A DNA stretch of 32,000 bases from Cupriavidus necator (GCF_016127575.1 NZ_CP066019.1:660001-692000), one strand, 5' to 3'. Counted from the stretch's first letter, positions 1 to 15,701 are shown. The notes: generated by a model not told the origin, from the sequence alone. Numbers and translations: made by a program.

Positions 1-1
1 G

Positions 2-664
2 TTCGGCCTGTTCCGCACCGACCCGGCCTCGACCCGACACCATGGCCTGACCTTCATCCTGATGCCGCTGGACACGCCCGGCATCATCGTGCGCCCGATC
101 CGCCAGCTCAACGGCCAGACCGGCTTTGCCGAGATCTTCTTCGACGACGTGCGCGTGCCGGTGGAAAACCGCCTGGCCGCAGAAGGCGCCGGCTGGCAGG
201 TGGCCATGGCCACCGCCGGCTTCGAACGCGGCCTGATGCTGCGCTCGCCGGCGCGCTTCCAGGAAACCGCGCGCGCGCTGGTCAGGCTGTACCAGGCCAA
301 CCGCGAGGCGGCGGACCGCGACCCGTCGCTGCGCGAGGCGGTGCTGCGCGCCTGGATGGACGCCGAGGCCTACACGCTGTCCACCTACGCCACCGCGAGC
401 CGCCTGGTGCGCGGCGGCCATATCGGCGCGGAGTCGAGCACGAACAAGGTGTTCTGGTCCGAGCTGGACATCCATATGCACGATACCGCGCTGGCCATCC
501 TGGGGCAGTCCGCAGAGGTCGCGCCCGACGGCCAGCCGCCGGGTTCGCTCGGCCACTGGCTGGATGGCTTCCTGTTCTCGCAGGCCGGGCCGATCTATGC
601 CGGCACCAACGAGATCCAGCGCAATATCGTCGCCGAGCGCCTGCTCGGCATGCCGCGCGCATGA
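2..664 (+). CDS. acyl-CoA dehydrogenase family protein, C-terminal ~220 aa (5' end lies outside the window); 'large' member of an adjacent ACAD pair
   Basis: The frame is open from the window edge (FGLFRTDPASTRHHGLTFILMPLDTPGI...) to TGA 662-664. ACAD C-terminal signature ...GPIYAGTNEIQRNIVAERLLGMPRA. Clear paralog of CDS 4991-6193. Confidence 0.9.
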   Translation, partial: FGLFRTDPASTRHHGLTFILMPLDTPGIIVRPIRQLNGQTGFAEIFFDDVRVPVENRLAAEGAGWQVAMATAGFERGLMLRSPARFQETARALVRLYQANREAADRDPSLREAVLRAWMDAEAYTLSTYATASRLVRGGHIGAESSTNKVFWSELDIHMHDTALAILGQSAEVAPDGQPPGSLGHWLDGFLFSQAGPIYAGTNEIQRNIVAERLLGMPRA

Positions 665-684
665 CGGCACCCGGGGAAAACACC

Positions 685-1752
685 ATGGATTTCGCATTGA
701 CCGAAGAGCAGGAGCAGTTTGCCGAGGCGATCCGGCGCTTCCTGATGACCGAGATGACGCCCGAACTGACGCGCGAGCTGTGGGCCACCGAGTCTGGCCG
801 CTCCGACGCGCTGTGGCGCCAGCTTGCCAACCAGGGCCTGACCGCGGTGATGGTGCCGCAGGAGCAGGGCGGACTGGGGCTGGGCGAGGTCGAATGGGCG
901 CCGCTGGCGCAGGCCTGCGGCTACTTTGCGCTGCCCGAGCCTTTGCTGGACACTGCGCTGGTCGCGGCCGGGCTGCTGCGCGATGCGCTCGCGGCGGCGC
1001 CGAACGCCTCGGCGCACGAACGCTGCGCCACGCTGCTGGAGCGCATCGCCGCCGGCGATGCCCGCGTGGCGGTGGCGCATCCGCAAGAGCGGCTGGTGGC
1101 CGACGCCCATGTCGCCGACGCGATCCTGTGCGCGCACGAAGGTGCCGTGCACCTGCTGCGGCCCGACCAGGCCGTGCTGACGGCGCGCACCGGGCTCGAT
1201 CCTTCGCGCCGCCTGTTCGAGCTGGCGTGGACGCCGGCCGCGGAGTCCGAACTGATCCCGTCCGGTAGTGGCCTGTGGAGCAGCGCGCTGAACCGCGGCG
1301 CGCTTGGCGTGGCCGCGCAGCAGCTGGGCCTGACCCAGCGCATGCTGGACCTGGCGATCGACTACAGCGCGCAGCGCAAGCAGTTCGGCAAGGCCATCGG
1401 CGCCTACCAGGCGGTCAAGCACCTGCTGGCCGACGTGGCGATCCAGCTCGAGTTCGCCCGGCCGGTGCTGCTGCGCGCCGCCGCCGCGCTGGCGCACGGC
1501 CTGCCCGATGCGGGCCTGCATGTCTCGCACGCCCGCGTGGCCGCCGCGCGCTGCGCGTGGAGCGCGGCGCGCCAGGCGATCCAGGTGCATGGCGCAATGG
1601 GCTACACCTGGGAGCTGGACCTGCAGATCTTCACCAAGCGCGCCTGGGCCCTGGCGGGAAGCTGGGGCGACCGTGCCTTCCACAAGGCGCGCATGGGCGC
1701 GCACATCCTTGACGGCGTGCATGAGATCGGCGCCGGCGCCACCTTCGCCTGA
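685..1752 (+). CDS. acyl-CoA dehydrogenase family protein, 'small' partner (355 aa)
   Basis: Typical ACAD N-terminus MDFALTEEQEQFAEAIRRFL and C-terminal-domain motifs (QRKQFGKAIGAYQAVKH...IQVHGAMGYTWE). GGGGAA lies upstream of ATG 685. ATG 661 (ATGA overlap) is an alternative start. Confidence 0.85.
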   Translation: MDFALTEEQEQFAEAIRRFLMTEMTPELTRELWATESGRSDALWRQLANQGLTAVMVPQEQGGLGLGEVEWAPLAQACGYFALPEPLLDTALVAAGLLRDALAAAPNASAHERCATLLERIAAGDARVAVAHPQERLVADAHVADAILCAHEGAVHLLRPDQAVLTARTGLDPSRRLFELAWTPAAESELIPSGSGLWSSALNRGALGVAAQQLGLTQRMLDLAIDYSAQRKQFGKAIGAYQAVKHLLADVAIQLEFARPVLLRAAAALAHGLPDAGLHVSHARVAAARCAWSAARQAIQVHGAMGYTWELDLQIFTKRAWALAGSWGDRAFHKARMGAHILDGVHEIGAGATFA

Positions 1753-1772
1753 ATCCAAAGAGAACCAAGACC

Positions 1773-2924
1773 ATGAAAGACGCCTATATCGTTGATGCCC
1801 TGCGCACGCCCACCGGGCGCCGCAAGGGCGGACTGTCGCACATGCACGGCGCCGACCTGGGCGGCTTCGTGCTGGCCGAGCTGGTGCGCCGCAACGGCAT
1901 TCCCGCCGAGGATTATGACGACGTGGTGTTCGGCTGCGTCGACACCATCGGCCCGCTGGCCGGCAATATCGCCCGCAGCGCGTGGCTGGCCGCCGGCCTG
2001 CCGCTGACGGTGCCGGGCGTGACCGTGGACCGCCAGTGCGGCTCGTCGCAGCAGGCCGTGCACTTTGCCGCGCAGGCAGTGATGAGCGGCACGCAGGACG
2101 TGGTGATCGCCGGCGGCGTGCAGACCATGACCCAGATCCCGATCTCGTCGGCCATGCTGGCCGGGCAGGCACTGGGCTTTGCCGACCCGTTCTCGGGCAG
2201 CAAGGGCTGGCAGACGCGCTTTGGCGATGCGCCGGTGTCGCAGTTCCATGCGGCGCAGCGCATTGCCGATCACTGGAAGCTGTCGCGCGAGGCCATGGAA
2301 GCCTACGCGCTGGCAAGCCATCAGCGCGCCGCCGCGGCCATCGAAGGCGGCCGCTTTGCGCGCGAGATCGTGCCGTGCGCAGGCGTGAAGCATGACGAGA
2401 CCCCGCGCCCCGATACCACGCTGGCCAGGATGGCTGCGCTGGAACCGCTGATGCCCGGCAGTTCGCTGACTGCGGCTGTGTCCAGCCAGACCGCCGATGC
2501 CGCCGCCGCGCTGCTGATCGTCTCGGAAGACGCGCTCAAGCGCTACCAGCTCAAGCCGCGTGCGCGCATCGCGCATATGAGCGTGCTGGGCGACGACCCG
2601 CTGTGGATGCTGACCGCGCCGATCCCTGCAACCAGACGCGCACTGGAGCGCAGCGGCCTGCGCCTGGCCGATATCGACGTGGTCGAGATCAATGAAGCGT
2701 TCGCCTCGGTGGCGATGGCATGGCTGGCCGAAACCGGCTACGCGGCCGAGCGCACCAACCCCAACGGCGGCGCCATCGCACTGGGCCACCCGCTGGGCGC
2801 CACCGGCGCGCGCCTGATGACCACGCTGCTGCATGAGCTGGAACGCACCCGCGGGCGCTACGGCCTGCAGACCATGTGCGAAGGCGGTGGCCTGGCCAAC
2901 GTCACCATCATCGAACGCTTGTAA
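1773..2924 (+). CDS. thiolase (acetyl-CoA C-acyltransferase family), 383 aa
   Basis: MKDAYIVDALRTPTGRRKG start. Catalytic Cys motif VDRQCGSSQQAV. C-terminal NGGAIALGHPLGATGARL and MCEGGG motifs. Confidence 0.93.
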   Translation: MKDAYIVDALRTPTGRRKGGLSHMHGADLGGFVLAELVRRNGIPAEDYDDVVFGCVDTIGPLAGNIARSAWLAAGLPLTVPGVTVDRQCGSSQQAVHFAAQAVMSGTQDVVIAGGVQTMTQIPISSAMLAGQALGFADPFSGSKGWQTRFGDAPVSQFHAAQRIADHWKLSREAMEAYALASHQRAAAAIEGGRFAREIVPCAGVKHDETPRPDTTLARMAALEPLMPGSSLTAAVSSQTADAAAALLIVSEDALKRYQLKPRARIAHMSVLGDDPLWMLTAPIPATRRALERSGLRLADIDVVEINEAFASVAMAWLAETGYAAERTNPNGGAIALGHPLGATGARLMTTLLHELERTRGRYGLQTMCEGGGLANVTIIERL

Positions 2925-2934
2925 GGAGACCGCC

Positions 2935-3819
2935 ATGGGAATCTGCGACGCACGCACCGTCATCATCACCGGCGCCGGCGGCGGGCTGGGCCGTGCCTAT
3001 GCGCTGGCCTTCGCCGCCGAGGGCGCCAACGTGGTCGTCAACGACATCCGGCGCGAGGCGGCCGAGGCCGTCTGCGCGGAGATCCGTGCAGCCGGCGCGA
3101 AGGCAAAAGCGGCGCTGGCCAGCGCTGACGACATCACGCAGCTGGCCACCGCGCAGCGCATCGTCGATGCCGCGGTCGAGGCCTTCGGCGAGGTCCACGT
3201 GCTGGTCAACAACGCCGGCATCTGCCGCGACCGCATGTTTGTCAGCCTGACCGAAGCGGACTGGGACGACGTCATGCGCGTGCACCTGCGCGGCCACTTC
3301 TGCCTGGCCAACCTGCTCGCCAAACGGTGGCGCGATGCCGCCAAGGCCGGCCGCGCCGTCGACGCGCGCATTATCAACACCAGCTCCGGCGCGGGCCTGC
3401 AGGGTTCTGTCGGGCAGTCCAACTACGCCGCCGCCAAGGCCGGCATTGCCGCGCTCACGCTGGTGCAGGCCGCCGAGCTGGGCCGCTATGGCATCACCGC
3501 CAATGCGCTGGCGCCGGCGGCGCGCACCGGCATGACCGAAGACGTGTTCGCCGACATGATGCGGGCGCCGGCCGACGGCTTCGACTACTACGACCCGGCC
3601 AACGTCGCGCCGCTGGTGGTGTGGCTGGGCAGCGCCGCCTCCGCGCAGGTCAACGGGCGCATGTTCGAGGCGGCCGGCGGCATGGTTTCCGTGGCCGACG
3701 GCTGGCGCACCGGACCCAGGACCGACAAGGGATCGCGCTGGCAGCCGGCCGAACTGGGCGCAGCCGTGGCGGAACTGCTGGCGCAGGCGCAGCCGCCCCA
3801 GCCGGTCTACGGCAGCTGA
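2935..3819 (+). CDS. SDR, MFE-2/HSD17B4-type (R)-3-hydroxyacyl-CoA dehydrogenase-like, 294 aa
   Basis: AGGAGA Shine-Dalgarno (SD) before ATG 2935. VIITGAGGGLGRAYALAFAAEGANVVVNDI, NNAGICRDRMF and the YxxxK region (SNYAAAKAG) follow the dehydrogenase domain of peroxisomal multifunctional enzyme 2 as I recall it. Confidence 0.87.
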   Translation: MGICDARTVIITGAGGGLGRAYALAFAAEGANVVVNDIRREAAEAVCAEIRAAGAKAKAALASADDITQLATAQRIVDAAVEAFGEVHVLVNNAGICRDRMFVSLTEADWDDVMRVHLRGHFCLANLLAKRWRDAAKAGRAVDARIINTSSGAGLQGSVGQSNYAAAKAGIAALTLVQAAELGRYGITANALAPAARTGMTEDVFADMMRAPADGFDYYDPANVAPLVVWLGSAASAQVNGRMFEAAGGMVSVADGWRTGPRTDKGSRWQPAELGAAVAELLAQAQPPQPVYGS

Positions 3820-3830
3820 GCGCGACGGCC

Positions 3831-4994
3831 ATGGACTTCTCCCTTAGCCTCGAACAGCAGATGGTACGCGACAGCGCGCGCGACTACCTCGCCGCGCACA
3901 GCGATTCGGCGGCGGTGCGGCGCGTGACCGAGGCGGGCGCCGCGCACGACGAAGCGCTGTGGCACGCGGTCGCGGGCGAACTCGGCTGGTGCGGCATCGC
4001 ACTGCCCGAAGCCGTGGGCGGCGCCGGCCTGGGGGCGCCCGGGCTGGTGCTGCTGCAGGAACAACTGGGCCAGCGCCTGGCCTGCGTGCCGTTCTGGTCC
4101 GCCGTGTGCGTGGCCGCGCCCTGGCTTCAGGCCAGCCTGGGCCCGCGCGGCAGCGCGCATTGGCTGGAACGGCTGGCGTGTGGCGAGCTGCGTGCCGCCG
4201 CGGTGTTGCCGGACGATGGCGGCTGGCAGTACGACGGCGTCGCCATTGGCGCGCAGGCGGGCGCGGATGGCTTCGTGCTGCGCGGCTGCGCCGCCCAGGT
4301 GGCCGATGCCGCCGGCGCCGACTGGCTGCTGGTGCCGGCCCGGCTCGAAGACGGCGTGCCTGCGCTGTTCCTGCTGGAGCCAGCAGCACTGGCACAGGAT
4401 GCGCGAATCATGCTGGCGCCGCTCGATACGCTGGACCGCACGCGGCCGCAGGCCGCGCTGCGGCTGGACGGGCTGCCCGTGCCCGCCAGCGCCTGCCTGG
4501 CGCGCGCGGACGCGGCGGCGTTTGGCCTGGCCCAGGCCTGGTGGCACGGCAAGCTGATGCTGGCGGCGGAGCAGCTTGGCGCGGCCCAGCAATGCCTGGA
4601 CCTGACCGTAGCTTATGCCTCGGAACGGATCCAGTTCGGGCGCGCCATCGCCTCGTTCCAGGCGGTCAAGCACCGCTGCGCGCAGATGATGGTGCTGGTC
4701 GAGGCGGCGCGCTCGGCGGTGTATGGCGCGGCGCAGGCGTGGGAAACGGGCGAGGTGGCCGATGGTACCGGCATCCGCCTCGACATCGCCGCCGCATCCG
4801 TGGCAGCCGACGATGCCCTGCGCTTCTGCGCGCAGGAGGCCATCCAGTTGCATGGCGGTGTCGGCTTCACCTGGGAATACGACCCCCAGCTCTATTTCAA
4901 GCGCGCGCAGGCCGCCAGCCACTGGCTGGGCGGTGCCGGCGCGGCGCTGGCGTATCTCGCAGCAAATGGCCCGAACGCGTGGAGGACAGCATGA
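3831..4994 (+). CDS. acyl-CoA dehydrogenase family protein, 'small' partner (387 aa)
   Basis: MDFSLSLEQQMVRDSARDYL start. ERIQFGRAIASFQAVKH...IQLHGGVGFTWEYD. Its stop overlaps the next ACAD start (ATGA at 4991-4994). Confidence 0.86.
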   Translation: MDFSLSLEQQMVRDSARDYLAAHSDSAAVRRVTEAGAAHDEALWHAVAGELGWCGIALPEAVGGAGLGAPGLVLLQEQLGQRLACVPFWSAVCVAAPWLQASLGPRGSAHWLERLACGELRAAAVLPDDGGWQYDGVAIGAQAGADGFVLRGCAAQVADAAGADWLLVPARLEDGVPALFLLEPAALAQDARIMLAPLDTLDRTRPQAALRLDGLPVPASACLARADAAAFGLAQAWWHGKLMLAAEQLGAAQQCLDLTVAYASERIQFGRAIASFQAVKHRCAQMMVLVEAARSAVYGAAQAWETGEVADGTGIRLDIAAASVAADDALRFCAQEAIQLHGGVGFTWEYDPQLYFKRAQAASHWLGGAGAALAYLAANGPNAWRTA

Positions 4995-6193
4995 CAGCGA
5001 ATCAAGAGGCGGCATTCCGCGCCGAAGTCGCGCAGTGGATGGCCGCCAACCTGGCCGGCGAGTTCGCCTGCCTGAAGCACCGCGGCGGCCCCGGCGACGA
5101 AGAGGCCTATCCCGAACTGCGCAAGGCGTGGGAGCGCCGGCTGGCCGAAGGCGGCTGGACCGGCCTGGGCTGGCCGCGCGCGCATGGCGGGCGCGAGCTG
5201 CCGGTCATGCAGCAGGTGATCTTCCATGAGGAATACGCGCGGGCAGGGGGGCCGGGCCGCATGGGCCATATCGGCGAGGGGCTGATCGGCCCGACCCTGG
5301 TCGCCTTCGGCACCGACGACCAGAAGGCGCGCTTGCTGCCCGGCATCCTGAACGGCACCACGTTCTGGTGCCAGGGGTATTCGGAGCCTGGCGCGGGCTC
5401 GGACCTGGCCAATGTGCGCACGCGGGCGGAGCGCGATGCGGCCACCGGCGACTGGCTGGTGAGCGGCCAGAAGGTGTGGACCTCGCTCGCGCACGATTCG
5501 GACTGGATCTTCGTGCTGGCGCGCTGCGAGCCCGGCTCGCGCGGCAGCAAGGGCCTGGTCTTCCTGATGCTGCCGCTGGACCAGCCCGGCATCGAGATCC
5601 GGCCGATTCGCCAGATGGGCGGCGGCGCCGAATTCAACGAGGTGTTCTTCGACGGCGCACGTGCCGCCGCCGCCGATGTGCTGGGCGCGCCCGGCGATGG
5701 CTGGCGCATCGCCATGGCGCTGCTGGGCTTCGAGCGCGGCATCTCCACGCTGGGCCAGCAGATGCAGTTCACGCACGAACTGGAATGGGTGGCGCAGGCC
5801 GCGCGCGACAACGGCAGCAGCCGCGACGCGCTGGTGCGCCAGCGCATCGCGCGCGCCTGGGCCGGCCTGCGCGTGATGCGCGCCAATGCGCTGCGCATGC
5901 TGGCGGGCGCGGCGCAGGCGGGCCAGGACGGCGGCACCGCGCTGCAGCGCGACGCGCTGATCTACAAGTACTACTGGTCCAACTGGCACCGAGACCTGGG
6001 CCAGCTGGCGCTGGACGTGCTGGGTCCGCTGGCCAATGTGCTGGACGCCGGCGACACGCGCCGCACGCGGCTGCAGCAGATGGCGCTGTTCTCGCGCGCC
6101 GACACCATCTACGCCGGCACCAACGAAATCCAGCTCAACATCATCGCCGAACGCGGCCTCGGCATGCCGCGCGAAGCACGAGGACAGTCATGA
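4991..6193 (+). CDS. acyl-CoA dehydrogenase family protein, 'large' partner (400 aa)
   Basis: GGAGGA SD before ATG 4991. FWCQGYSEPGAGSDLANVRT, GQKVWTS and TIYAGTNEIQLNIIAERGLGMPRE motifs. ATGA overlaps at both ends. Confidence 0.9.
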   Translation: MTANQEAAFRAEVAQWMAANLAGEFACLKHRGGPGDEEAYPELRKAWERRLAEGGWTGLGWPRAHGGRELPVMQQVIFHEEYARAGGPGRMGHIGEGLIGPTLVAFGTDDQKARLLPGILNGTTFWCQGYSEPGAGSDLANVRTRAERDAATGDWLVSGQKVWTSLAHDSDWIFVLARCEPGSRGSKGLVFLMLPLDQPGIEIRPIRQMGGGAEFNEVFFDGARAAAADVLGAPGDGWRIAMALLGFERGISTLGQQMQFTHELEWVAQAARDNGSSRDALVRQRIARAWAGLRVMRANALRMLAGAAQAGQDGGTALQRDALIYKYYWSNWHRDLGQLALDVLGPLANVLDAGDTRRTRLQQMALFSRADTIYAGTNEIQLNIIAERGLGMPREARGQS

Positions 6194-6993
6194 CCCTGAA
6201 CACCGAAATCCCCAGCGGCCCGGCCTATGTGCCTGGCCATCAGTTGCTCGCCGGCAAGAGTGTGCTCATCACCGCCGCGGCGGGCGCCGGCATCGGCTTT
6301 GCCGCCGCGCGCCGCTGCGCCGAGGAGGGCTGCCGCGCGCTGATGATCTCCGACGTCCATGAGAAGCGCCTGGCCGAAGCGGTCGGGCGCCTGCGCGCGG
6401 AAACCGGCCTGCAGGCGATCCATGGCCAGCTTTGCGATGTATCGGATGAAGCGCAGGTGCGCGCACTTGTGGCCGCCGCCGAAGAAGCCTTGGGCGGAAC
6501 CGACGTGCTGATCAACAACGCCGGCCTGGGCGGCTCGCGCCGCCTAGTTGATATGGACGATGCCGAGTGGTCGCGCGTGATCGATATTTCCCTCACGGGC
6601 ACCTTCCGCATGACGCGAGCGATGTTGCCGCACATGCAGGCGCGCCGGCGCGGCGCCATCGTCAACAACGCCTCGGTGCTGGGCTGGCGTGCGCAGAAGG
6701 AGCAGTCGCACTACGCCGCGGCCAAGGCCGGGGTGATGGCGCTGACGCGCTGCAGCGCGATGGAAGCCGCCGAATTTGGCGTGCGCATCAATGCGGTGGC
6801 GCCCAGCATCGCGCTGCATGACTTCCTGAAGAAGTCGGCGCCGGCCGACCTGCTGCGCCAGCTCAGCGAGCGCGAAGCGTTCGGGCGCGCGGCCGAGGTG
6901 TGGGAGGTGGCCAATGTGATGGTATTCCTGGCCAGCGACTATGCCTCGTACATGACGGGCGAGGTGCTGCCGGTGAGCAGCCAGCGGGCTTGA
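6190..6993 (+). CDS. short-chain dehydrogenase/reductase (FabG-like), 267 aa
   Basis: Glycine-rich VLITAAAGAGIGFAAA, NNAGLGG and the catalytic SHYAAAKAG (YxxxK). ATGA coupling to the upstream ACAD. Confidence 0.88.
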   Translation: MTLNTEIPSGPAYVPGHQLLAGKSVLITAAAGAGIGFAAARRCAEEGCRALMISDVHEKRLAEAVGRLRAETGLQAIHGQLCDVSDEAQVRALVAAAEEALGGTDVLINNAGLGGSRRLVDMDDAEWSRVIDISLTGTFRMTRAMLPHMQARRRGAIVNNASVLGWRAQKEQSHYAAAKAGVMALTRCSAMEAAEFGVRINAVAPSIALHDFLKKSAPADLLRQLSEREAFGRAAEVWEVANVMVFLASDYASYMTGEVLPVSSQRA

Positions 6994-7033
6994 AGGGAAA
7001 CAGTTGGGACCGGGAACAACGCAGGAACCAGAC

Positions 7034-7489
7034 ATGCCAAGAATCTTCCGTTCTGCCGAAGACATCCACGCCGCCGTCGGCCAGCGCCTCGGCGAGAGCG
7101 CCTGGACCCAGATCACCCAGGAACAGGTCAACCAGTTCGCCAATGCCACTGGCGACCACCAGTGGCTGCACGTGGACCCGGAGCGCGCCGCGCAGGGCCC
7201 ATACGGCGCCTGCATCGCGCACGGCTACCTGACGCTGGCGCTGGTCAACCAGTTCCTGCCGGAGCTGGTCACGGTCGAAGGCATGAAGTGGGGCGTCAAC
7301 TACGGCTGCGACAAGGTGCGCTTCCCGGCGCCGGTGCGCGTGGGCGCGCGCGTGCGCGGGGTGGGGGAACTGGTGCGGGCCGAGACCTTGCAGGGCGGCG
7401 TGCAGTCGGTGGTGCGCATGACCGTGGAAATCGAAGGCGGAGACAAGCCGGCCTGCGTGGCCGAGACCATCAGCCGCTATTACTTCTGA
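7034..7489 (+). CDS. MaoC-like single hot-dog (R)-specific enoyl-CoA hydratase, 151 aa
   Basis: Hydratase-2 type motif [40 protein letters not shown] precedes ATG 7034; the upstream in-frame ATG at 7004 is an alternative start. Confidence 0.87.
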
Positions 7490-7502
7490 ACAGGAATCCA
7501 GA

Positions 7503-8705
7503 ATGAAAGAAGCAGTCATTGTCGCCGTCGCGCGCACACCGATCGGCAAGGCCTTCCGCGGTGCCTTCAACGACACCGAGGCCCCGGTGCTGGGCGGCCA
7601 CGTGGTGCGCGCGGTGGTGGAGCGCGCCGGCGTGGATCCGTCCGAGGTGGAAGATGTGCTGATCGGCGCGGCCGCGCAGCAGGGCACCCAGGGCTACAAC
7701 CTGGGCCGCCTGTGCGCTGTGGCGGCCGGCCTGCCGGACAGCGTGCCCGGCATGACCATGGACCGTATGTGCGGCTCGGGCCTGATGACGATCGCTGCGG
7801 GCGCCCGCGCGATCCAGTGCGGCGAGGCCGACATCATCATCGCCGGCGGCGCGGAATCTATCTCGCTGACGCAGACCAGGCACAAGAACAGCTACCGCGC
7901 CCAGTCCGAAGCGGTGCTGGCGCGGCAGCCGGCAGCCTATATGGCAATGATCGAGACCGCCGAGGTGGTGGCGCGCCGCTATGGCATCAGCCGCGCCGAG
8001 CAGGACGCCTACGCCTGGCGCAGCCAGCAGCGCACCGCCGAGGCGCAGCGGCGCGGTGCCTTCGATGACGAGATCGTGCCGCTGGAAACGCGCCGCGCGC
8101 TGTTCGACAAGGCCGGCACGCTGACCGGCCACGAGACCGTTCGGCTTGCGCACGACGAGTGCAACCGGCCCGATACCACGGCCAGCAGCCTGGAGGCGCT
8201 GAAGCCGGTCTGGAGCGGCGGCCAGGCGGTGGCCGCCGGCGAGCACATCACTGCCGGCAATGCCTCGCAGTTGTCGGACGGCGCCGCCGCGGTGCTGATG
8301 ATGAGTGCCGACGAGGCCCGCCGGCGCGGCCTGCGCCCGCTGGGCCGCTACCGCGGCATGGCGGTGGCGGGCTGCGCGCCGGACGAGATGGGGATCGGCC
8401 CGGTATTCGCCGTACCCAGGCTGCTCGCGCGCCATGGCATGACGGTGGCCGACGTGGGCCTGTGGGAGCTGAACGAGGCCTTTGCCTGCCAGGTGCTGTA
8501 CTGCCAGCAGAAGCTGGGCATCCCGGATGCGCGCCTGAATGTCAACGGCGGCGCGATCTCGATCGGCCATCCGTTCGGCATGTCGGGTGCGCGCATGACC
8601 GCGCATGCATTGATTGAAGGCCGGCGCCGCGGCGTGCAGCAGGCAGTGGTGACCATGTGCATCGGTGGCGGCATGGGTGCCGCCGCGCTGTTCGACGTTC
8701 TGTAA
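7503..8705 (+). CDS. thiolase (acetyl-CoA C-acetyl/acyltransferase), 400 aa
   Basis: [52 protein letters not shown] and [13 protein letters not shown]. Confidence 0.94.
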
Positions 8706-8775
8706 TTACAAGCAGCCCCTGCAGGGACGGCCCGCAACGAGGCCGCCTGCCATCACTCCAACCGGAGGAGACATC

Positions 8776-9741
8776 ATGAAACGACTGATCGGCGTCGCCA
8801 TGTCGCTGGCCGTGCTGGCCACCGCGGTATGGGCCTTCGCGCCGCGCCCGCTGCCGCCGTTCGCGGCCACGACGCTGCGCCCGGACGGCCTGCAGGTCAA
8901 CGGCATCGCGCGCGCCGGCGAGCGCCTGGTGGCAGTGGGCGAGCGCGGCCAGATCCTGTTCAGCGACGACCAGGGCGGCAACTGGCGCACGGCCGTGGTG
9001 GATCATCCGCAAGGCGCCGCGCTGACCCAGGTGGCCTTTGCCGACAGCCGCCACGGCATGGCGGTCGGGCACAGCGGCTGGATCTTGCGCACGGAAGACG
9101 GCGGTGCGCACTGGCAGCAGGTGGCGTTCGACGCGAGCTCGTCCGATCCGCTGCTCGGCGCCTGGGCCCAGGCGGGCGGCCCGTGGTTCGCGGTCGGCAG
9201 CTTTGGCCGCTTCCTGGTCTCGCGCGACCAGGGCAGGCACTGGGAGCCGGCCGCAGACAAGGCCATGCAGGACCGCCACCTCAACGGCATTGCCGGCGAC
9301 GGGCAGGGGCGCCTGATGCTGGTCGGCGAAACCGGCCTGGTGCTGCGCTCGCCCGACGGCGGCAGCCGCTGGGAGGTGGTGAAGTCCCCCTACGAGGGAT
9401 CGCTGTACGGCGTGCAGCCGCTGCGCGATGGCGCCTGGCTGGCCTTCGGCATGCGCGGCAACGCCTTGCGCAGCGAGGACTTCGGCGCCACCTGGCAGGC
9501 CGCGGACACTGGCCTCAAGACCTCGTTCTTCGGCGGCGTCGAGCTGCCCGATGGGCGCATCGTGCTGGCCGGGCAGGGTGGCACGATGGTGATGTCCGCC
9601 GACGGCGGGCGCCACTTCACCGCCCTGCCCGCCGGCAGCCCGCAGACCCTGGCCGCGCTGGCCCCTGCCGGCAAGGACAAGCTGGCGCTGGGCGGCAATG
9701 GCGGCCTTGCCGGCGCCACGCTCGCCGCCAACCCCCGCTGA
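8776..9741 (+). CDS. secreted BNR/Asp-box beta-propeller protein (Ycf48-like), 321 aa
   Basis: GGAGGAG SD. Signal peptide MKRLIGVAMSLAVLATAVWA. Six Asp-box-like repeats: SDDQGGNW, TEDGGAHW, SRDQGRHW, SPDGGSRW, SEDFGATW, SADGGRHF. Confidence 0.78.
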   Translation: MKRLIGVAMSLAVLATAVWAFAPRPLPPFAATTLRPDGLQVNGIARAGERLVAVGERGQILFSDDQGGNWRTAVVDHPQGAALTQVAFADSRHGMAVGHSGWILRTEDGGAHWQQVAFDASSSDPLLGAWAQAGGPWFAVGSFGRFLVSRDQGRHWEPAADKAMQDRHLNGIAGDGQGRLMLVGETGLVLRSPDGGSRWEVVKSPYEGSLYGVQPLRDGAWLAFGMRGNALRSEDFGATWQAADTGLKTSFFGGVELPDGRIVLAGQGGTMVMSADGGRHFTALPAGSPQTLAALAPAGKDKLALGGNGGLAGATLAANPR

Positions 9742-9769
9742 CCCTGGCTTACCGAATGCGAGAACGATC

Positions 9770-12211
9770 ATGACCCGCCCCCATTCCTCCGGCCGCCTGG
9801 GCCGCCTTGTCGATGCCTGCGCCAGCCTGCTGATGCACCGGCGCCGCCTGCTGCTGGTGCTGTGCCTGGCCGTGACCGTGGCGCTGGGCGCCTCGGCCAC
9901 GCGGCTGCGGCTCGATCCCGGCTTCAACAAGATGATCCCGCTGCAGCACCCGTTCATGCAGGTGTTCACCAAGTACGCGAGCACCTTTTCCGGTGCCAAT
10001 ACGGTGCTGCTGAGCCTGCGCTGGAAGGGCGACGGCGATATCTACAACGCGGCCTTCATGGACAAGCTGCGCCGCGCCACCGATGACGTGTTCTTCATCC
10101 CCGGCGTGGACCGCTCGCGCGTGTTCTCGCTGTTCACGCCCAATGTGCGCTACACCGAGGTGACGGAGGCGGGCTTTCGCGGCGACGTGGTGGTGCCGGG
10201 GCGCTTCTCCGGCACGCCGGCCGAGCTCGACAAGGTGCGCCGCAACGTGGCGCGCTCCGGCCAGATCGGCCGCCTGGTCAGCAACGACCTGAGGTCCGCG
10301 CTGATCCGCGCGGAATTGCGCGAGACCGATCCGGCCACCGGCAAGACCATCGACTACGGTTCGGTCGCGCGCCAGCTGGAGAAGATCCGCGGGGACTTCA
10401 GCGGCACCGACGTCGAGGTCAATATCGTCGGCTTTGCCAAGCTGGTGGGCGATGTGGAAGAGGGCATCGCCGGCGTGATGGGCTTCTTCGCGCTGGCCTT
10501 CGCCGTGACCGCGCTGCTGCTGTGGCTGTACACGCGCTCGCTGCGTATCACGCTGCTGTCGCTGGCGGTGGCGCTGCTGCCCGTGGCCTGGCTGCTGGGC
10601 CTGCTGCCGCTGCTGGGCTACGGCATCGATCCGATGTCGATCCTGGTGCCGTTCCTGATCTTTTCGATCGGGGTCTCGCACGCGGTGCAGATGACCAATG
10701 CCTGGAAGCAAGAGGTGGTGCAGGGACATGGTGCGCTGGACAGCGCCAGCGCGGCCTTCCGCAAGCTGTTCATCCCCGGCACGGTCGCGCTGCTGACCAA
10801 CGCGCTCGGGTTCATGGTCATCATGCGCATCGAGATCGACATCGTGCGCGAGCTTGGCATCACCGCCTGCCTGGGCGTGCTGCTGATGATCGTGACCAAC
10901 AAGGTGTTCCTGCCGATCCTGCTGTCGTACACGCGGCTGGAGCCGTCGGCGCTGGCATCGGCGCAGGCCCGGCGCGCGCACGGAACCGGCGGGCTGTGGC
11001 AGAAGTTCGGCGCGCTGGCGCGTCCGGGCCCGGCGCTGGGCGTGTTCGTTGCCGCGCTCGCGTTGCTGGCGGCCGGCGCCATCGATTCGCGCGGCCTCAA
11101 GATTGGCGATGTCGGCAGCGGCGCACCGGAACTGCGCGCGGATTCGCGCTACAACCGCGACAGCGCCAGCATCGTGAGCCAGTACAACATCGGCTCGGAT
11201 GCGCTGACCGTGGTGGTGGAACCCACCGGCTTCGACGACGGCTGCCTGCACTACCCGGTGATGAGTGCGGTGGAACGCTTCGAGATGCATATGCGCGGCG
11301 TGTCCGGCGTGCAGTCGGTGGTGAGCGTGTCGTCGCTGGCCAAGGTGGTGATCGGCGCCTACAACGAGGGCAACCCGCGCTGGGAGGCGCTGCCGCGCAG
11401 CAGCGAGGGCCTGAGCCAGGGCGCCAAGGCCTTCGACCCGGACAACGGCATGAATACCTCGAACTGCCAGGCCATCCAGGTGCTGATCTACACCGCCAAC
11501 CATGAGGGCGCCACCATCGCCCACATCATCCGCGAGATCCGCCGCTTCACCGCCGCCGACAAGACCCCCAACGTGGCGTTCCGCCTGGGCGGGGGCAATA
11601 TCGGCGTGATGGCGGCCACCAATGAGGCCGTGGAAGAAGCCGAAGTGACCATGCTGCTGTCGATCTTCGGTGCGATCACGCTGCTATGCCTGCTGACGTT
11701 CCGCTCGTGGCGCGCGGTGCTGTGCATCATCGTGCCGCTGACGCTGGTGTCGGTGCTGTGCAATGCGCTGATGGCGCGGCTTGGCATCGGGCTGAAGGTG
11801 TCGACGCTGCCGGTCATCACGCTGGGCGTGGGCGTCGGCGTGGACTACGGCATCTACCTGTATGAGCGCATCCAGCACCAGATCCGCGAGGAAGGGCAGG
11901 CCCTGCCGCAGGCCTTTGCCGAGGCCATGCGCCAGCGCGGTTCGGCGGCGCTGTTCACGGCGCTGACGATGTGCATCGGGGTGGGCACCTGGGCCTTTGC
12001 CGCGCTCAAGTTCCAGGCCGACATGGGTATCCTGCTGGCCTTCATGTTCCTGGTGAACCTGTTCGGCGCGGTGTCGCTGCTGCCGGCGCTGGCTGCGTGG
12101 CTGGGGGTGGAGGAAGAAGAGCGTGCGCGCGTGGCCGCCGGTGGTGCCGGTGGCGCCGCGCGCGGCGAGACGGTGCCGCCGGCGCACGCCCTGAAATCCG
12201 ACGCGGTGTAA
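9770..12211 (+). CDS. RND-superfamily (MMPL/HpnN-like) inner-membrane transporter, 813 aa
   Basis: N-terminal TM segment, then two repeats of a large soluble loop followed by a hydrophobic TM bundle. This size and layout are typical of the 'exporter of the RND superfamily' proteins usually found next to Ycf48-like propellers. Confidence 0.85.
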   Translation: MTRPHSSGRLGRLVDACASLLMHRRRLLLVLCLAVTVALGASATRLRLDPGFNKMIPLQHPFMQVFTKYASTFSGANTVLLSLRWKGDGDIYNAAFMDKLRRATDDVFFIPGVDRSRVFSLFTPNVRYTEVTEAGFRGDVVVPGRFSGTPAELDKVRRNVARSGQIGRLVSNDLRSALIRAELRETDPATGKTIDYGSVARQLEKIRGDFSGTDVEVNIVGFAKLVGDVEEGIAGVMGFFALAFAVTALLLWLYTRSLRITLLSLAVALLPVAWLLGLLPLLGYGIDPMSILVPFLIFSIGVSHAVQMTNAWKQEVVQGHGALDSASAAFRKLFIPGTVALLTNALGFMVIMRIEIDIVRELGITACLGVLLMIVTNKVFLPILLSYTRLEPSALASAQARRAHGTGGLWQKFGALARPGPALGVFVAALALLAAGAIDSRGLKIGDVGSGAPELRADSRYNRDSASIVSQYNIGSDALTVVVEPTGFDDGCLHYPVMSAVERFEMHMRGVSGVQSVVSVSSLAKVVIGAYNEGNPRWEALPRSSEGLSQGAKAFDPDNGMNTSNCQAIQVLIYTANHEGATIAHIIREIRRFTAADKTPNVAFRLGGGNIGVMAATNEAVEEAEVTMLLSIFGAITLLCLLTFRSWRAVLCIIVPLTLVSVLCNALMARLGIGLKVSTLPVITLGVGVGVDYGIYLYERIQHQIREEGQALPQAFAEAMRQRGSAALFTALTMCIGVGTWAFAALKFQADMGILLAFMFLVNLFGAVSLLPALAAWLGVEEEERARVAAGGAGGAARGETVPPAHALKSDAV

Positions 12212-12234
12212 GGCCGATGACCCGGAGAGACAGC

Positions 12235-13476
12235 ATGCACGATCACCAGGCTTACGCGGCGGCGGCATTCACACCGGTCCGCATCGGCCCGCTCACGCTG
12301 CGCAATCGCATTATCAAGGCCGGCGCCAACGAGGGCATGACGCCGCAGGGCCTGCCGACCGAGGCGCTGGTCAGGCACCACCGCGAGCTTGCCGCGGGCG
12401 GCGTGGGCATGACCACGGTGGCGTATGCGGCGGTGGCCGACGACGGCCTGACTTTTTCGCACCAGCTCAGTATGCGCCCGGAGCAGGTTGCGCACCTGCG
12501 CGTGCTGACCGATGCCGTGCATCGCGAAGGCGCGGCGGCCTGCCTGCAGATCACCCATGCGGGCTCGTTCACCACCATGCGCCATGGCGGCAGCCGCGCG
12601 CCGGGCAGTGCTTCATCCGGACTCAATGCCTTTGGCATGCTGCATGGCGTGTATTTCCAGCGTGCCATGCGCGAGGCGGACATGGCGCGCGTTGCCGGCC
12701 AGTTTGCCGCCGCGGCGCGGCTGGCGCGCGAAGCCGGCTTCGACGCGGTGGAAATCCACATGGGGCACGGCTACCTGCTCAACCAGTTCCTGTCGCCACT
12801 GAGCAACCGTCGGCGCGATGCGTTCGGCGGCAGCGTGGAGAACCGCACCCGCTTTCCGGCCGCGGTACTGCGCCAGGTGAAGGACGCGGTCGGCGCCGAG
12901 CTGGCGGTCTGCTGCAAGCTGAGCGTCAGCGACGGCGTGCCGGGCGGCAACGAACCCGCGGATTCCGCCGTGAGCGCGCGCCTGCTGGAGGCGGAAGGCG
13001 CCGACCTGCTGACCCTCAGCGGCGGGCGCAACGTCGAGAGCCCGTGGGCGCTGTTCGGCAGCCCCATGCCCACGGCGCAGATGAAGGCCGCCGCACCGAC
13101 CGCGGTGGCGCGCTTCGGCATCACCATGCTGGAGAAGCGCACGCCGCGCGCGCTGGCCTTTCGCGAGCTGTACTTCCTGGAGGCGTCGCGCGTGGTGCGG
13201 CGGGCGGTGCGCATGCCGCTGGCCTATATCGGCGGCGTCAAGTCGATCGGCAATGTCGCGCAGCTGATGGAAGAGGGCTTCGACTGCATCGCGCTGGCGC
13301 GCGCGCTGATCCACGATCCCGCACTGGTCGCCAACTGGCGCAGCGGCGCGGTGGCGCATTCGGCCTGTGACAGCTGCAATGGCTGCGTGGCGCGGATCTA
13401 CGATCCGGCCGGTGTCAGTTGCGTGCATGGCCCGGGCAATGACCCGGCGCTGACGAAGATTGCCGCGCTGCAGTAG
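12235..13476 (+). CDS. NADH:flavin oxidoreductase, Old Yellow Enzyme family, with C-terminal Cys cluster, 413 aa
   Basis: GGAGA SD 6 nt before ATG 12235. IRIGPLTLRNRIIKAGANEGM, QITHAGS, HMGHGYLLNQFLSPLSNRRRDAFGGSVENRTRF. C-terminal CDSCNGC-x11-C at 13366-13422. Confidence 0.88.
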   Translation: MHDHQAYAAAAFTPVRIGPLTLRNRIIKAGANEGMTPQGLPTEALVRHHRELAAGGVGMTTVAYAAVADDGLTFSHQLSMRPEQVAHLRVLTDAVHREGAAACLQITHAGSFTTMRHGGSRAPGSASSGLNAFGMLHGVYFQRAMREADMARVAGQFAAAARLAREAGFDAVEIHMGHGYLLNQFLSPLSNRRRDAFGGSVENRTRFPAAVLRQVKDAVGAELAVCCKLSVSDGVPGGNEPADSAVSARLLEAEGADLLTLSGGRNVESPWALFGSPMPTAQMKAAAPTAVARFGITMLEKRTPRALAFRELYFLEASRVVRRAVRMPLAYIGGVKSIGNVAQLMEEGFDCIALARALIHDPALVANWRSGAVAHSACDSCNGCVARIYDPAGVSCVHGPGNDPALTKIAALQ

Positions 13477-13551
13477 TCCGATGGGACGATGAGCCGCCGG
13501 CCAGACGCTCTTATCTTGAAGGTCCCACGGGAATTCAAGGAGACAGACGCC

Positions 13552-14652
13552 ATGACCGCTGACGGCAACCAGACTGGCTACAAGACCGGCTACAAGATCG
13601 AATCACGCCCGCTCGAGGCCCGCTACGCGCGCGGCTGGCATTGCCTCGGCCTGGCCGATGGCTACCGCGACGGCGTGCCGCACACGCTGAATATCTTCGG
13701 CCGGCGCCTGGCGGCGTTTGCCGACTCGACCGGCGCGATTCGCGTGATCGACGGCTACTGTCCGCACATGGGCGCAGACCTGAGCACCGGCACCGTGCAG
13801 GGCGACAACCTGGTCTGCCCGTTCCACGGCTGGCAGTGGGGCGGCGACGGCGGCTGCAAGTCCATTCCCTACTGCAAGCGGGTGCCGCCCAAGGCCCGCG
13901 TCGGCGCCTGGGAGACCTGCGAGCAGAACCACCTGCTCTTCATCTGGCACGATCCCGAAGGCCGCCCGGCACCCCTCGAGGTGGCGATTCCGCGCATCGA
14001 TGCCTGCTTCTCTTCGGATTGGTCGGACTGGGCCATCGACGAGATGCTGATCCGCACCAATTGCCGCGAGCTGGTCGACAATATCTCCGACATGGCGCAT
14101 TTCGGCACGGTCCATGGCGCGCCGGTGGACTATTTTGCCAACCTGTTCGAAGACCACAAGGCCACGCAGCTGATGATCGGGCGCAGTGCCCGGCTCTCGG
14201 GCGATGCGCAGCTGACGGCGCTGTCCACGTACTTCGGGCCCGCATACCACATCACCGAGATGATCGGACAGATGGGCGACCAGCAGATCCACTCGATCCT
14301 GCTCAACTGCCATGTGCCGATCGACCTCAACAGCTTCGCGCTGCGCTACGGCGTGTTGGTGAAGAAGATCCCGGGGCTGTCCGAGGAACAGAACCGTGCC
14401 ATGGCGCAAGCCTATGTGGAGCAGGCCAAACAGGCCTTCTACGAGGACGTGGCGATCTGGGACAGCAAGATCCGCATCGACAACCCGTTGCTGTGCGAAG
14501 GCGACGGGCCCCTCTACCAGATGCGTGACTGGTACCAGCAGTTCTACACCGACGTGGAGCAGGTGCGGCCGTCCAGCGTGGCACGGCGCATCTTTGAGCT
14601 GAACCCGGGCAATATCGAACCGCCGGCGCTGCGGCATGTGTTCGAGGCCTGA
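13552..14652 (+). CDS. Rieske [2Fe-2S] non-heme-iron oxygenase, KshA-like (3-ketosteroid 9alpha-hydroxylase oxygenase family), 366 aa
   Basis: AAGGAGA SD. Rieske motif CPHMGADLSTGTVQGDNLVCPFH (C-x-H-x16-C-x2-H, from nt 13759). RGWHCLGLA and WQWGGDGGCKSIPY resemble KshA. Mononuclear iron motif DNISDMAHFGTVH. Confidence 0.87.
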   Translation: MTADGNQTGYKTGYKIESRPLEARYARGWHCLGLADGYRDGVPHTLNIFGRRLAAFADSTGAIRVIDGYCPHMGADLSTGTVQGDNLVCPFHGWQWGGDGGCKSIPYCKRVPPKARVGAWETCEQNHLLFIWHDPEGRPAPLEVAIPRIDACFSSDWSDWAIDEMLIRTNCRELVDNISDMAHFGTVHGAPVDYFANLFEDHKATQLMIGRSARLSGDAQLTALSTYFGPAYHITEMIGQMGDQQIHSILLNCHVPIDLNSFALRYGVLVKKIPGLSEEQNRAMAQAYVEQAKQAFYEDVAIWDSKIRIDNPLLCEGDGPLYQMRDWYQQFYTDVEQVRPSSVARRIFELNPGNIEPPALRHVFEA

Positions 14653-15470
14653 TGGCAACCTCCACGGAACCTCGCACCATGAAAACCGTCGTCATTACCG
14701 GAGCCGCGTCCGGTATGGGCGCGGCCGTGCGCCAGCGCATGCTCGCCGACGGCTGCCGGGTCATCGGCATCGACCTGCGCGATGCCGACATCGTTGCCGA
14801 CCTGTCCAGCCCGCAGGGCCGCGCTGCCGCGATCGACGCCGTACTGTCGCGGTCAGGCGGCCGCATCGACCGGCTGGTCTGCTGCGCCGGCCTGGGCCCG
14901 CATGTCGAACCCGCAACGCTGGTGGCATCGGTCAACTACTTCGGCTTGGTAGCACTGCTGGATGGCCTGTTCGAGGCGCTGCGCCAGGGCTCGGATCCGT
15001 GCGCCGTGGTGGTGTCGTCCAACTCGGCCACGCTCCAGTCCTGGGAGGGCAGCCCGCTGCGTGATGCCTACCTTGCCGGCGATGAGCCAGGCGTGTGCAC
15101 GATGGTGGCGGCCGCCGCGGCGGCGGAAGCCACCCGGGACCAGGCTGGCTATATCGCCTATGCCAGTTCCAAGCATGCGGTGGCGGCGGCCGCGCGGCAA
15201 CGTGCGGCCGCGTGGGGACAGGCCGGCGTGCGCCTCAACGTGGTCGCGCCGGGGGCGGTGGAAACGCCGCTGCTGCAGGCCGGGCTGAAGGATCCGCGCT
15301 ATGGCGATGCCATTCGCGATTTCCTGCCGCCGCTTGGGCGCCGCGCCCAGCCTGAAGAGGTGGCCGCGCTGATCGCGTTCCTGTGCGGGCCGCACGCTGC
15401 CTACATCCATGGCAACGTGGTGTTCATCGACGGCGGCCTGGATGCCGCGCAGCGACCGCTGAACTTCTGA
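14652..15470 (+). CDS. SDR closely resembling 3alpha-hydroxysteroid dehydrogenase/carbonyl reductase (Comamonas HsdA type), 272 aa (263 aa if it starts at 14679)
   Basis: From memory, alignment with C. testosteroni 3alpha-HSD/CR is striking: IGIDLRDADIVADLS, LVCCAGLGP, SVNYFG, AAAWGQAGVRLNVVAPGAVETPLLQAGLKDPRYG, PPLGRRAQPEEVAALIAFL, IDGGLDA. TGATG overlap with the Rieske gene. ATG 14679 (MKTVVITG) is the alternative start. Confidence 0.88.
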   Translation: MATSTEPRTMKTVVITGAASGMGAAVRQRMLADGCRVIGIDLRDADIVADLSSPQGRAAAIDAVLSRSGGRIDRLVCCAGLGPHVEPATLVASVNYFGLVALLDGLFEALRQGSDPCAVVVSSNSATLQSWEGSPLRDAYLAGDEPGVCTMVAAAAAAEATRDQAGYIAYASSKHAVAAAARQRAAAWGQAGVRLNVVAPGAVETPLLQAGLKDPRYGDAIRDFLPPLGRRAQPEEVAALIAFLCGPHAAYIHGNVVFIDGGLDAAQRPLNF

Positions 15471-15481
15471 TCTCCTGGCCA

Positions 15482-15525
15482 ATGGGGCATCCGCCGCGAG
15501 CCGCGGCGGATGCCCCATTTTTGTT
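15482..15525 (+). terminator. Rho-independent terminator closing the 14-gene + strand operon
   Basis: Perfect 17-bp stem ATGGGGCATCCGCCGCG / CGCGGCGGATGCCCCAT with a 3-nt loop, followed by TTTTGTT. Confidence 0.85.
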
Positions 15526-15541
15526 CGATGGCGCTCCGGAC

Positions 15542-15664: not shown

Positions 15665-15665
15665 G

Positions 15666-15701
15666 TAAAAACCCCCAAAAGTCGTCTCCGACTTCTGGGG
15701 G
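15666..15701 (-). terminator. Rho-independent terminator downstream of the DUF1329 gene
   Basis: On the - strand: CCCCCAGAAGTCG-GAGA-CGACTTTTGGGGG (13-bp stem, one G:U) followed by TTTTTAC. Confidence 0.7.

Follow-up and report, generated by a model that had tools for sequence, protein, structure and literature searches.

The DNA considered here, hereafter the window, is a stretch of 32,000 nucleotides (nt) from Cupriavidus necator (GCF_016127575.1, NZ_CP066019.1:660001-692000), the first 15,470 of which carry a string of genes that probably belongs to a steroid degradation cluster. Over the overlaps compared, the window matches chromosome 2 of C. necator H16 (AM260480.1, ~734.7-766.7 kb) with 100% identity. 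Its G+C content is ~70%, and codon-position GC, Pfam domains and the listing of open reading frames (ORFs) together yield a single clear gene set; an Rfam scan identified no Rfam families in the window. Positions 1-15470 hold 14 closely spaced genes, all on the + strand, with an intrinsic terminator beyond the last of them. In the following list, ACAD stands for acyl-CoA dehydrogenase and SDR for short-chain dehydrogenase/reductase, and the Scd positions are those of the scd gene cluster of Comamonas testosteroni TA441, to which the string is compared below.

2..664, + strand: gene 1, ACAD large (alpha-type) subunit, ScdM1 position; C-terminal 220 amino acids (aa), Pfam Acyl-CoA_dh_1, top NCBIfam match of the pimC_large type
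661..1752, + strand: gene 2, ACAD small (beta-type) subunit, ScdM2 position; Pfam ACAD N- and C-terminal domains, ATG overlapping the stop of gene 1
1773..2924, + strand: gene 3, thiolase, ScdF position (FadA6-type); Pfam Thiolase_N/C, catalytic Cys/His/Cys present
2935..3819, + strand: gene 4, SDR, ScdE position (hydroxyacyl-CoA dehydrogenase); Pfam adh_short/KR
3831..4994, + strand: gene 5, ACAD small (beta-type) subunit, ScdC1C2 position; Pfam ACAD N- and C-terminal domains only
4991..6193, + strand: gene 6, ACAD large (alpha-type) subunit, ScdC1C2 position; all three Pfam ACAD domains, ATGA overlap with gene 5
6190..6993, + strand: gene 7, SDR, ScdG position (9-hydroxyl/9-oxo, ring-remnant CoA ester); Pfam adh_short_C2, role taken from TA441
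7034..7489, + strand: gene 8, single hot-dog MaoC enoyl-CoA hydratase, ScdD position; Pfam MaoC_dehydratas, position and role taken from TA441
7503..8705, + strand: gene 9, thiolase, ScdJ position; Pfam Thiolase_N/C, catalytic Cys/His/Cys present
8776..9741, + strand: gene 10, BNR/Ycf48-like beta-propeller, AmeC-like (COG4447), predicted secreted; Pfam PSII_BNR/BNR
9770..12211, + strand: gene 11, HAE3-type RND/MMPL inner-membrane transporter, AmeD-like; Pfam MMPL, Sterol-sensing and Patched
12217..13476, + strand: gene 12, Old Yellow Enzyme (OYE) family flavoprotein, ~410 aa; Pfam Oxidored_FMN, no Fe-S domain
13489..14652, + strand: gene 13, predicted KshA, 3-ketosteroid 9alpha-hydroxylase oxygenase; alternative start at 13552
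14652..15470, + strand: gene 14, 3alpha-hydroxysteroid dehydrogenase/carbonyl reductase (3alpha-HSD/CR) homologue, an SDR; TGATG overlap with the kshA stop
15481..15527, + strand: intrinsic terminator; 18-pair stem (13 G-C pairs) at 15481-15519, then TTTTGTT

The initial annotation of this DNA had described fourteen co-directional, tightly packed genes with start/stop overlaps at 4991, 6190 and 14650 and a single strong terminator, and both descriptions hold. The genes overlap through ATGA at 661 (an additional instance), 4991 and 6190 and through TGATG at 14650, and the remaining intergenic gaps in the 14-gene stretch measure 5-70 nt, the widest of the string being the 70 nt before gene 10 (junction 8705/8776). 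The hairpin at 15481-15519 is the sole strong + strand terminator-like site in 1-17500; the other + strand sites there have stems of just 5-9 pairs, and the total count of such sites (7 found, 6.1 expected) is at the level of shuffled sequence. A second strong hairpin, on the - strand at 15702-15671, closes a convergent DUF1329 gene.

What has to be revised is the extent of the unit, which had been given as 14 genes and 15.5 kb. Gene 1 is cut by the left window edge (the full gene, at 8838-10004 of locus L001, encodes a protein of 388 aa and begins 1,166 nt upstream of the window), and directly upstream on the same strand lie, in order, tesB, a CoA_trans gene (L1), its partner (L2), an enoyl-CoA hydratase (ECH) gene, an NMO-family gene, a second ECH gene and the full gene 1, joined by overlaps or gaps of at most 23 nt; no terminator was found among these seven genes. 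Counted from tesB to the terminator, the string therefore consists of 21 genes and about 21.4 kb. Such a layout would allow a single transcript for the whole string.

Probable correspondence to the 9,10-seco steroid pathway

The published gene order in C. testosteroni TA441 is tesB, scdL1L2, N, K, Y, M1M2, F, E, C1C2, G, D and J, with which the remarks on sub-clusters in a 2026 comparative preprint agree. In that organism N, Y and D are hydratases, K is a dehydrogenase, M1M2 and C1C2 are ACAD pairs, F and J are thiolase/CoA-transferases, E is a hydroxyacyl-CoA dehydrogenase, and G is an SDR acting at the 9-OH/9-oxo position. From tesB through scdJ, the Pfam classes of the H16 proteins match these Scd classes gene for gene. 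Because gene order and enzyme classes both match, genes 1-9 are predicted to occupy the positions of scdM1M2-F-E-C1C2-G-D-J.

The individual proteins of this segment are consistent with the assignment. The two adjacent large/small ACAD pairs, already recognized as paired in the initial annotation, have small subunits that lack a middle-domain match and are nearest IpdE2, the top NCBIfam match of both gene 2 (136 bits, under the cutoff of 450) and gene 5 (171 bits, likewise under cutoff). Both large subunits are of the pimC_large type, and the closest solved relatives of gene 6, the one large subunit that is complete in the window, are the heterotetrameric steroid ACADs Tcur3483 (E 1e-52) and the 4x28 chain (E 5e-47), which we take to be ChsE4-ChsE5. 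These similarities indicate that the ACADs are heteromeric pairs of steroid type, IpdE2- and Tcur3483-like, with a predicted alpha2beta2-type stoichiometry. Both thiolases are catalytically complete, as had been proposed, the Cys/His/Cys residues being legible in the translations; gene 3 passes the NCBIfam equivalog PRK07801 (697 bits, cutoff 591) and has FadA5 among its PDB matches (E 4e-78), and gene 9 has PRK07108 as its top NCBIfam match at 532 bits, under the cutoff of 615. The SDR encoded by gene 4 passes PRK07791 (470, cutoff 373) and is kept at 71-87% identity in Paraburkholderia, Burkholderia and C. basilensis-type Cupriavidus loci; the SDR of gene 7 passes the equivalog PRK07831 (454, cutoff 336). 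PRK07801, PRK07791 and PRK07831 are presumably built around FadA6, Rv3548c and IpdF, respectively, of the mycobacterial KstR2 regulon.

At the distal end of the string are two genes with well-defined steroid counterparts, as the initial annotation had suspected. Gene 13 contains full-length Pfam Rieske (70 bits) and KshA_C (248 bits) domains and matches solved KshA structures in the PDB with E values of 1e-114 to 1e-110, with 48% identity to chain 4qdf_B. Its metal ligands align as well (CPH...CPFH, that is CxH...CxxH, and H-x4-H...D), and on the basis of these features its product is predicted to be KshA. Gene 14 matches PDB 1fjh, the 3alpha-HSD/CR of C. testosteroni, over its full length (E 4.5e-78), whereas the runner-up PDB match is ~57 orders of magnitude weaker; the two proteins are 51% identical over 263 residues (E 1e-93), and the Ser, Tyr and Lys residues align (SS...YxxSK). 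In three Burkholderia loci (L045, L046, L062) the KshA gene is followed downstream by that of a second paralogue, which shares 59-60% identity with gene 13, and then by two SDR-like genes.

Further components of the pathway are encoded upstream of the window. Of the kshB, kstD and meta-cleavage genes that the initial annotation proposed to look for elsewhere in the genome, this upstream sequence contains a KshB-like gene, two KstD-family genes and tesB. The tesB product, an extradiol dioxygenase, has HsaC as its top NCBIfam match, below cutoff, and the CoA_trans protein and its partner are IpdAB-like and ScdL1L2-like. The KshB-like, FadD3-type ligase, HsaA/HsaB-like and two KstD-family genes all lie within ~25 kb upstream of the window in H16. 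The cognate FNR-like, plant-type 2Fe-2S reductase of KshA is present in the genome as a KshB-like protein of 355 aa with FAD_binding_6, NAD_binding_1 and Fer2 domains, encoded on chromosome 2 ~17 kb upstream of the window, whose homologues are labelled "3-ketosteroid-9-alpha-monooxygenase reductase" in many database records. Adjoining it is an AMP-binding acyl-CoA ligase of 546 aa, the Cupriavidus sp. KK10 counterpart of which passes the FadD3-family model (769 against a cutoff of 657); that score is the KK10 orthologue's, the H16 ligase itself being unscored. The HsaA-like gene encodes an HsaA/TesA1-like oxygenase of ACAD fold, the HsaB-like gene an HsaB/TesA2-like flavin reductase, and the two KstD-family genes FAD_binding_2 proteins whose size is that of KstD; additional upstream genes specify two SnoaL-fold proteins, several SDRs, and a 3beta-HSD-like protein of the epimerase family. 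No steroid genes were found in the ~10 kb beyond the right end of the window.

Regulatory genes are found in the same upstream region. Just before tesB sit a LuxR-type regulator gene and an EthD-like gene, the regulator gene being directly 5′ to the EthD-like gene and tesB, and the steroid island upstream contains two LuxR-type regulators of ~395 aa in all (L001 1179-2366 and L087 903-2087, H16 chromosome 2). It is possible that these are counterparts of TesR, placed differently from TA441. Divergent from a LuxR-type regulator is an SDR gene (L001 116-946, - strand) whose homologues in Rhizorhabdus/Sphingomonas wittichii and in Pseudomonas show 65-72% identity. Because R. wittichii RW1 is known to degrade testosterone, the SDR may be a conserved steroid dehydrogenase.

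Taken with the gene order of TA441, these assignments suggest a route whose individual steps are transferred from TA441 to H16. The 3alpha-HSD/CR homologue would convert 3alpha-hydroxysteroids to 3-ketosteroids, and together with other dehydrogenases and the KstD-family enzymes it would lead to androsta-1,4-diene-3,17-dione. Hydroxylation of the 3-keto-1,4-diene at C9 (9alpha) by KshA and KshB would then cause the B ring to open and the A ring to aromatize, after which TesA1A2, TesB and a hydrolase would strip off the A ring to leave 9,17-dioxo-1,2,3,4,10,19-hexanorandrostan-5-oic acid (HIP), which comprises the opened B ring together with rings C and D. A FadD3/ScdA-type ligase would produce HIP-CoA, which the operon and the upstream scdL1L2/N/K/Y-like genes would degrade in three beta-oxidation-like rounds interleaved with ring opening. 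In this scheme, ScdC1C2 would introduce the 6-ene, ScdD would hydrate it, ScdE would oxidize the resulting 7-hydroxyl and ScdF would remove acetyl-CoA, so that these enzymes jointly clear the B-ring remnant. ScdG would oxidize the 9-hydroxyl; ScdK, ScdY and ScdL1L2 would open rings D and C; ScdJ would carry out the second thiolysis; and ScdM1M2 with ScdN would begin the third beta-oxidation round on methyl-oxo-dicarboxyl-CoA esters.

The phenotype of the host is in keeping with such a route. In the work of Bergstrand et al. (2016), steroid degradation without the cholate side-chain genes was predicted for Cupriavidus, Burkholderia and Ralstonia, with NC_008314 (H16 chromosome 2) listed; testosterone supported growth of C. 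necator ATCC 17699 (= H16) and was removed by it, which was true of neither cholate nor cholesterol. C. necator NH9 is described in a 2026 preprint as having both scd and tes genes, and Scd orthologues have been reported from published reciprocal-BLAST and CAGECAT analyses, both for H16 chromosome 2 and for NH9. The steroid cluster of H16 is therefore already known, although no gene-level induction or knockout data for the H16 steroid genes were found in the literature.

Overall, we put at about 0.9 the probability that this region makes up the distal two thirds of a tesB-to-hsdA string within a steroid (androgen) island on H16 chromosome 2 that serves the ordinary 9,10-seco pathway. The initial annotation had reached a different view, treating the genes as a module of unknown substrate, for a steroid-like or alicyclic carboxylate, and possibly as a partial or divergent pathway for a different polycyclic compound. 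The genes instead match the TA441 scd genes that break down HIP, with its cleaved B ring and rings C and D; the host grows on testosterone; and further genes of the pathway lie outside the window, those from tesB onwards in the order of TA441. It had been observed correctly that KshB, KstD and TesA/B/D are absent from the window, but tesB and the KshB, KstD-family and HsaA/B-like genes are found upstream. Both the "unknown substrate" and the "missing" genes are artefacts, because the window was cut at that point. The identification in itself matters little, since a steroid C/D-ring operon is what one would expect in a strain for which steroid degradation had been predicted and growth on testosterone shown; its use is that it removes a false lead, that of an unknown substrate and a divergent pathway, made by the window boundary.

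Several differences from TA441 accompany the shared gene classes, gene order from tesB through scdJ, and 9,10-seco pathway. H16 has no steABCD genes (12-hydroxyl removal) upstream and lacks the cholate side-chain genes, and its LuxR-type regulator precedes tesB, whereas in TA441 the regulator (tesR) follows scdJ. After scdJ, H16 has the BNR-RND-OYE-kshA-hsdA series, whereas the kshA homologue and the 3alpha-dehydrogenase gene of TA441 are located elsewhere in its 120-kb mega-cluster. A more distant parallel is provided by the actinobacterial KstR2 regulon with its ipd genes (IpdAB, IpdC, IpdE1E2, IpdF, FadA6, EchA20 and FadD3), in which homologous families perform the same HIP chemistry; the IpdE2 matches of both small ACADs and the FadD3 match of the KK10 ligase reflect this relationship. 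However, the equivalog cutoffs are mostly unmet (IpdE2, HsaC), the gene order differs, and the H16 regulator is LuxR-type rather than TetR-type like KstR2.

Transporter genes and the flavoenzyme

The membrane transporter and the OYE are the only parts of the string without an established function. Gene 10 gives a Ycf48-like match in the PDB (E 4e-17), and the N-terminus of its product resembles a signal peptide. Gene 11 has sterol-sensing-domain-like segments; its top NCBIfam match, HAE3 TIGR00921, reaches 181 bits against a cutoff of 352, and it has no close solved relative, only a weak partial match to the hopanoid transporter HpnN (E 7e-9). As an HpnN itself, gene 11 was rejected, scoring 86 bits against 752 with TIGR03480 and 41 against 1100 with NF052374. 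A third candidate component is the convergent gene at the end of the string:

15771..17300, - strand: DUF1329/LolA-like protein, AmeB-like; Pfam DUF1329 (E 3e-124) and LolA_like, convergent on the operon, with its own terminator at 15702-15671

The DUF1329 protein, for which a PDB search returned no match, is probably a partner of the BNR-RND pair.

The trio can be compared with AmeABCD of Castellaniella, which consists of DUF1302, DUF1329, COG4447 BNR and HAE3 RND proteins, and with the co-fit four-gene system of Shewanella and Pseudomonas. BNR, HAE3-type RND and DUF1329 are common to these systems and H16, giving three of the four parts, with the HAE3 score of the RND protein under cutoff and DUF1329 on the opposite strand, where it ends another operon. 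Both the AmeABCD genes and the H16 cassette are located inside a catabolic island for a hydrophobic substrate; however, the setting in H16 is a steroid rather than a monoterpene one, and the window has no DUF1302. In Castellaniella defragrans, deletion of AmeABCD lowers monoterpene tolerance and the system has been linked to efflux, whereas AmeABCD-type systems have been linked to pleiotropic envelope phenotypes in Shewanella and Pseudomonas and to growth on fatty esters in P. putida. The function of the widespread DUF1302/DUF1329/BNR/HAE3-RND systems is disputed, with cell-envelope export, solvent efflux and ester use all proposed.

The association of the pair with steroid genes is recurrent. 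A scan of representative genomes with the KshA protein yielded 80 loci. Sufficient flanking sequence is available for 67 loci of Cupriavidus, Paraburkholderia, Burkholderia and Ralstonia, and every one of these carries the BNR-RND pair between scdJ and kshA. In 64 of the 67, no more than 1.7 kb separates the end of the RND gene from kshA, the OYE gene intervening in two of the other three, and in 33 loci a DUF1329 gene occurs no more than 10 kb downstream of kshA. A transporter (RND) gene has also been noted in the steroid cluster of Pseudomonas stutzeri Chol1, as a candidate efflux pump, and Chol1-type clusters are reported to contain two extra ORFs at the same place, between scdJ and tesR. 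Two TA441 ORFs considered as transporter counterparts, ORF25 and ORF26, are both amidases and were rejected.

Related arrangements occur at greater distance. DUF1329 genes flank or neighbor a kshA homologue in Solimonas (L074, L075) and Zavarzinia (L079), which are distant gamma- and alpha-proteobacteria, and no recognizable copy of the window's BNR/RND pair was found within the 10-kb flanks of these loci. In Pseudomonas laurylsulfativorans (L089 1-17236), a complete DUF1302-DUF1329-BNR-RND cassette, an SDR gene and an OYE gene reside directly 5′ of genes for a hydrolase (tesD-like) and for KshB-, TesB-, HsaA-, KshA- and KstD-like proteins. The cassette there is situated beside A/B-ring genes instead of after scdJ, and the best conserved of the proteins compared with the window is the OYE (65% identity, against 45% for KshA and 39% for RND).

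Homologues of gene 12 in the databases begin at its second ATG (413 aa), and its PDB matches are to generic OYE proteins only. It is 60-65% identical to homologues in Pseudomonas and ~58% identical to those in Steroidobacter and Solimonas, and only 18 of the 71 Burkholderiaceae loci contain it. Not every such OYE is tied to a steroid cluster: the context of the Steroidobacter homologue (L088) is without core steroid genes. Gene 12 might reduce a C=C bond in a steroid or ring-remnant intermediate. Conceivable analogs are SteD (ORF6) of TA441 and Sor1 of P. stutzeri Chol1, which are likewise OYE-family enzymes encoded in steroid clusters. SteD is an OYE-like steroid alkene reductase that works with a dehydratase to complete 12-hydroxyl removal, and ORF6 orthologues have been reported as conserved in cholate degraders alone, with none in degraders limited to testosterone, Cupriavidus among them. 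No SteC-type NTF2 dehydratase gene adjoins gene 12 in the window.

Little is understood of how steroids pass through the envelope of Gram-negative degraders, and we know of no proteobacterial system shown to carry out this transport besides a TonB-dependent receptor. The products of genes 10 and 11 and the DUF1329 protein may use the proton-motive force to transfer hydrophobic steroids among the inner membrane, the periplasm and the outer membrane; a role in substrate tolerance or efflux seems somewhat more likely than one in uptake. It may tentatively be proposed, at well under even odds, that an AmeABCD-like cassette and a ~410-aa OYE constitute a dedicated steroid-handling module of Gram-negative degraders, which would perform envelope transport or a detoxification step. 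With the cassette built into its steroid operon, the genetically tractable H16 would be a convenient place to study cassette function.

Alternative readings

Some observations weigh against one or another part of the proposed assignment. The one-to-one matching to Scd proteins draws on the order of the genes, their domain classes and family models rather than on reciprocal best hits, and the actinobacterial equivalog models IpdE2 and HsaC, although top matches, score below their own cutoffs. Within the ~68 kb of sequence covered, tesD/hsaD and tesEFG were not found in the ~26.6 kb upstream, the 16.5 kb of window 3′ of the operon, or the ~10 kb beyond. As to the distal genes, the 70-nt gap before gene 10 and the ending of the TA441 cluster at scdJ would allow an internal promoter, and because the OYE is absent from most related clusters it is not core to the pathway. 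For the cassette, no DUF1302 gene was found among the window genes, and the DUF1329 gene of the C. testosteroni steroid cluster has been reported as dispensable.

The alternative that survives best, though on balance doubtful, is that the string comprises two or more transcription units, namely a conserved tesB-to-scdJ operon and a separately promoted BNR-RND-OYE-kshA-hsdA add-on that shares its terminator. The widest gap of the string falls where such a division would be expected, but no terminator-like hairpin was found between genes 9 and 10, nor any sigma-70-like promoter match anywhere, in the scan of 1-17500. The division would agree with TA441, in which scdJ is followed by tesR and the kshA and 3alpha-dehydrogenase genes are elsewhere, and with the variable presence of the OYE and hsdA genes among related loci, whereas the scdJ-BNR-RND-kshA adjacency is invariant across three genera.

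Much less probable, with only a few chances in a hundred, is a bile-acid or sterol side-chain beta-oxidation module, in which the paired ACADs, the MaoC hydratase, an MFE-2-type dehydrogenase and the thiolases would shorten a C5 or C8 side chain. The same enzyme classes do serve side-chain degradation, and the relatives of gene 6 include the 4x28 chain, presumably a side-chain enzyme, as the thiolase matches include FadA5; yet none of the models passed by the thiolase and the two SDRs is the FadA5 one. The gene string contains no aldolase (Sal/Ltp2) or ChsH/Shy-type hydratase, its genes sit between the IpdAB-like scdL1L2 and kshA in scd order, and Cupriavidus, Burkholderia and Ralstonia are without most cholate side-chain genes, H16 using neither cholate nor cholesterol. 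This reading was rejected on gene order, the missing aldolase and hydratase types, and host phenotype. Least probable of all is a compact, self-contained module for another polycyclic or alicyclic carboxylate, such as a hopanoid or terpenoid acid, that diverges from the 9,10-seco pathway: KshB, KstD, TesA/B/D and IpdAB are not in the window, the RND protein is distantly related to HpnN, and AmeABCD-type cassettes are found in terpene clusters, but the absent genes sit just outside the window in the same genome, which already largely refutes it, and the TA441 gene order, HpnN scores far under cutoff and growth of the host on testosterone count against it further.

Adjoining gene clusters

Upstream of the DUF1329 gene on the - strand is a PimC/PimD-like ACAD pair (18593-19786 and 17452-18579), divergent from which are genes for an acyl-CoA ligase (20023-21651) and a TctC/Bug solute receptor (21709-22680). 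The ligase is not a FadD3 orthologue, and it was rejected as the HIP-CoA ligase, with 276 bits against the FadD3 cutoff of 657. The set at 17452-22680 adjoins the steroid cluster in Cupriavidus loci only and might handle dicarboxyl-CoA end products.

Farther along, the - strand at 23589-31765 encodes an ACAD, a family III CoA-transferase, an MmgE/PrpD protein, an HpcH-type lyase and a MaoC/Htd2 hydratase, with a LysR regulator gene nearby. This looks like a C5-dicarboxylate (itaconate/methylsuccinate-type) catabolic cluster that is unrelated to steroids. Between the two sets, ~900 nt without a called gene (22681-23588) have the lowest G+C content in the window (0.61). Because the equivalent spot in another Cupriavidus strain (L084) carries an HTH/Gp49 toxin-antitoxin-like pair and a transposase, this segment looks like an insertion hotspot.

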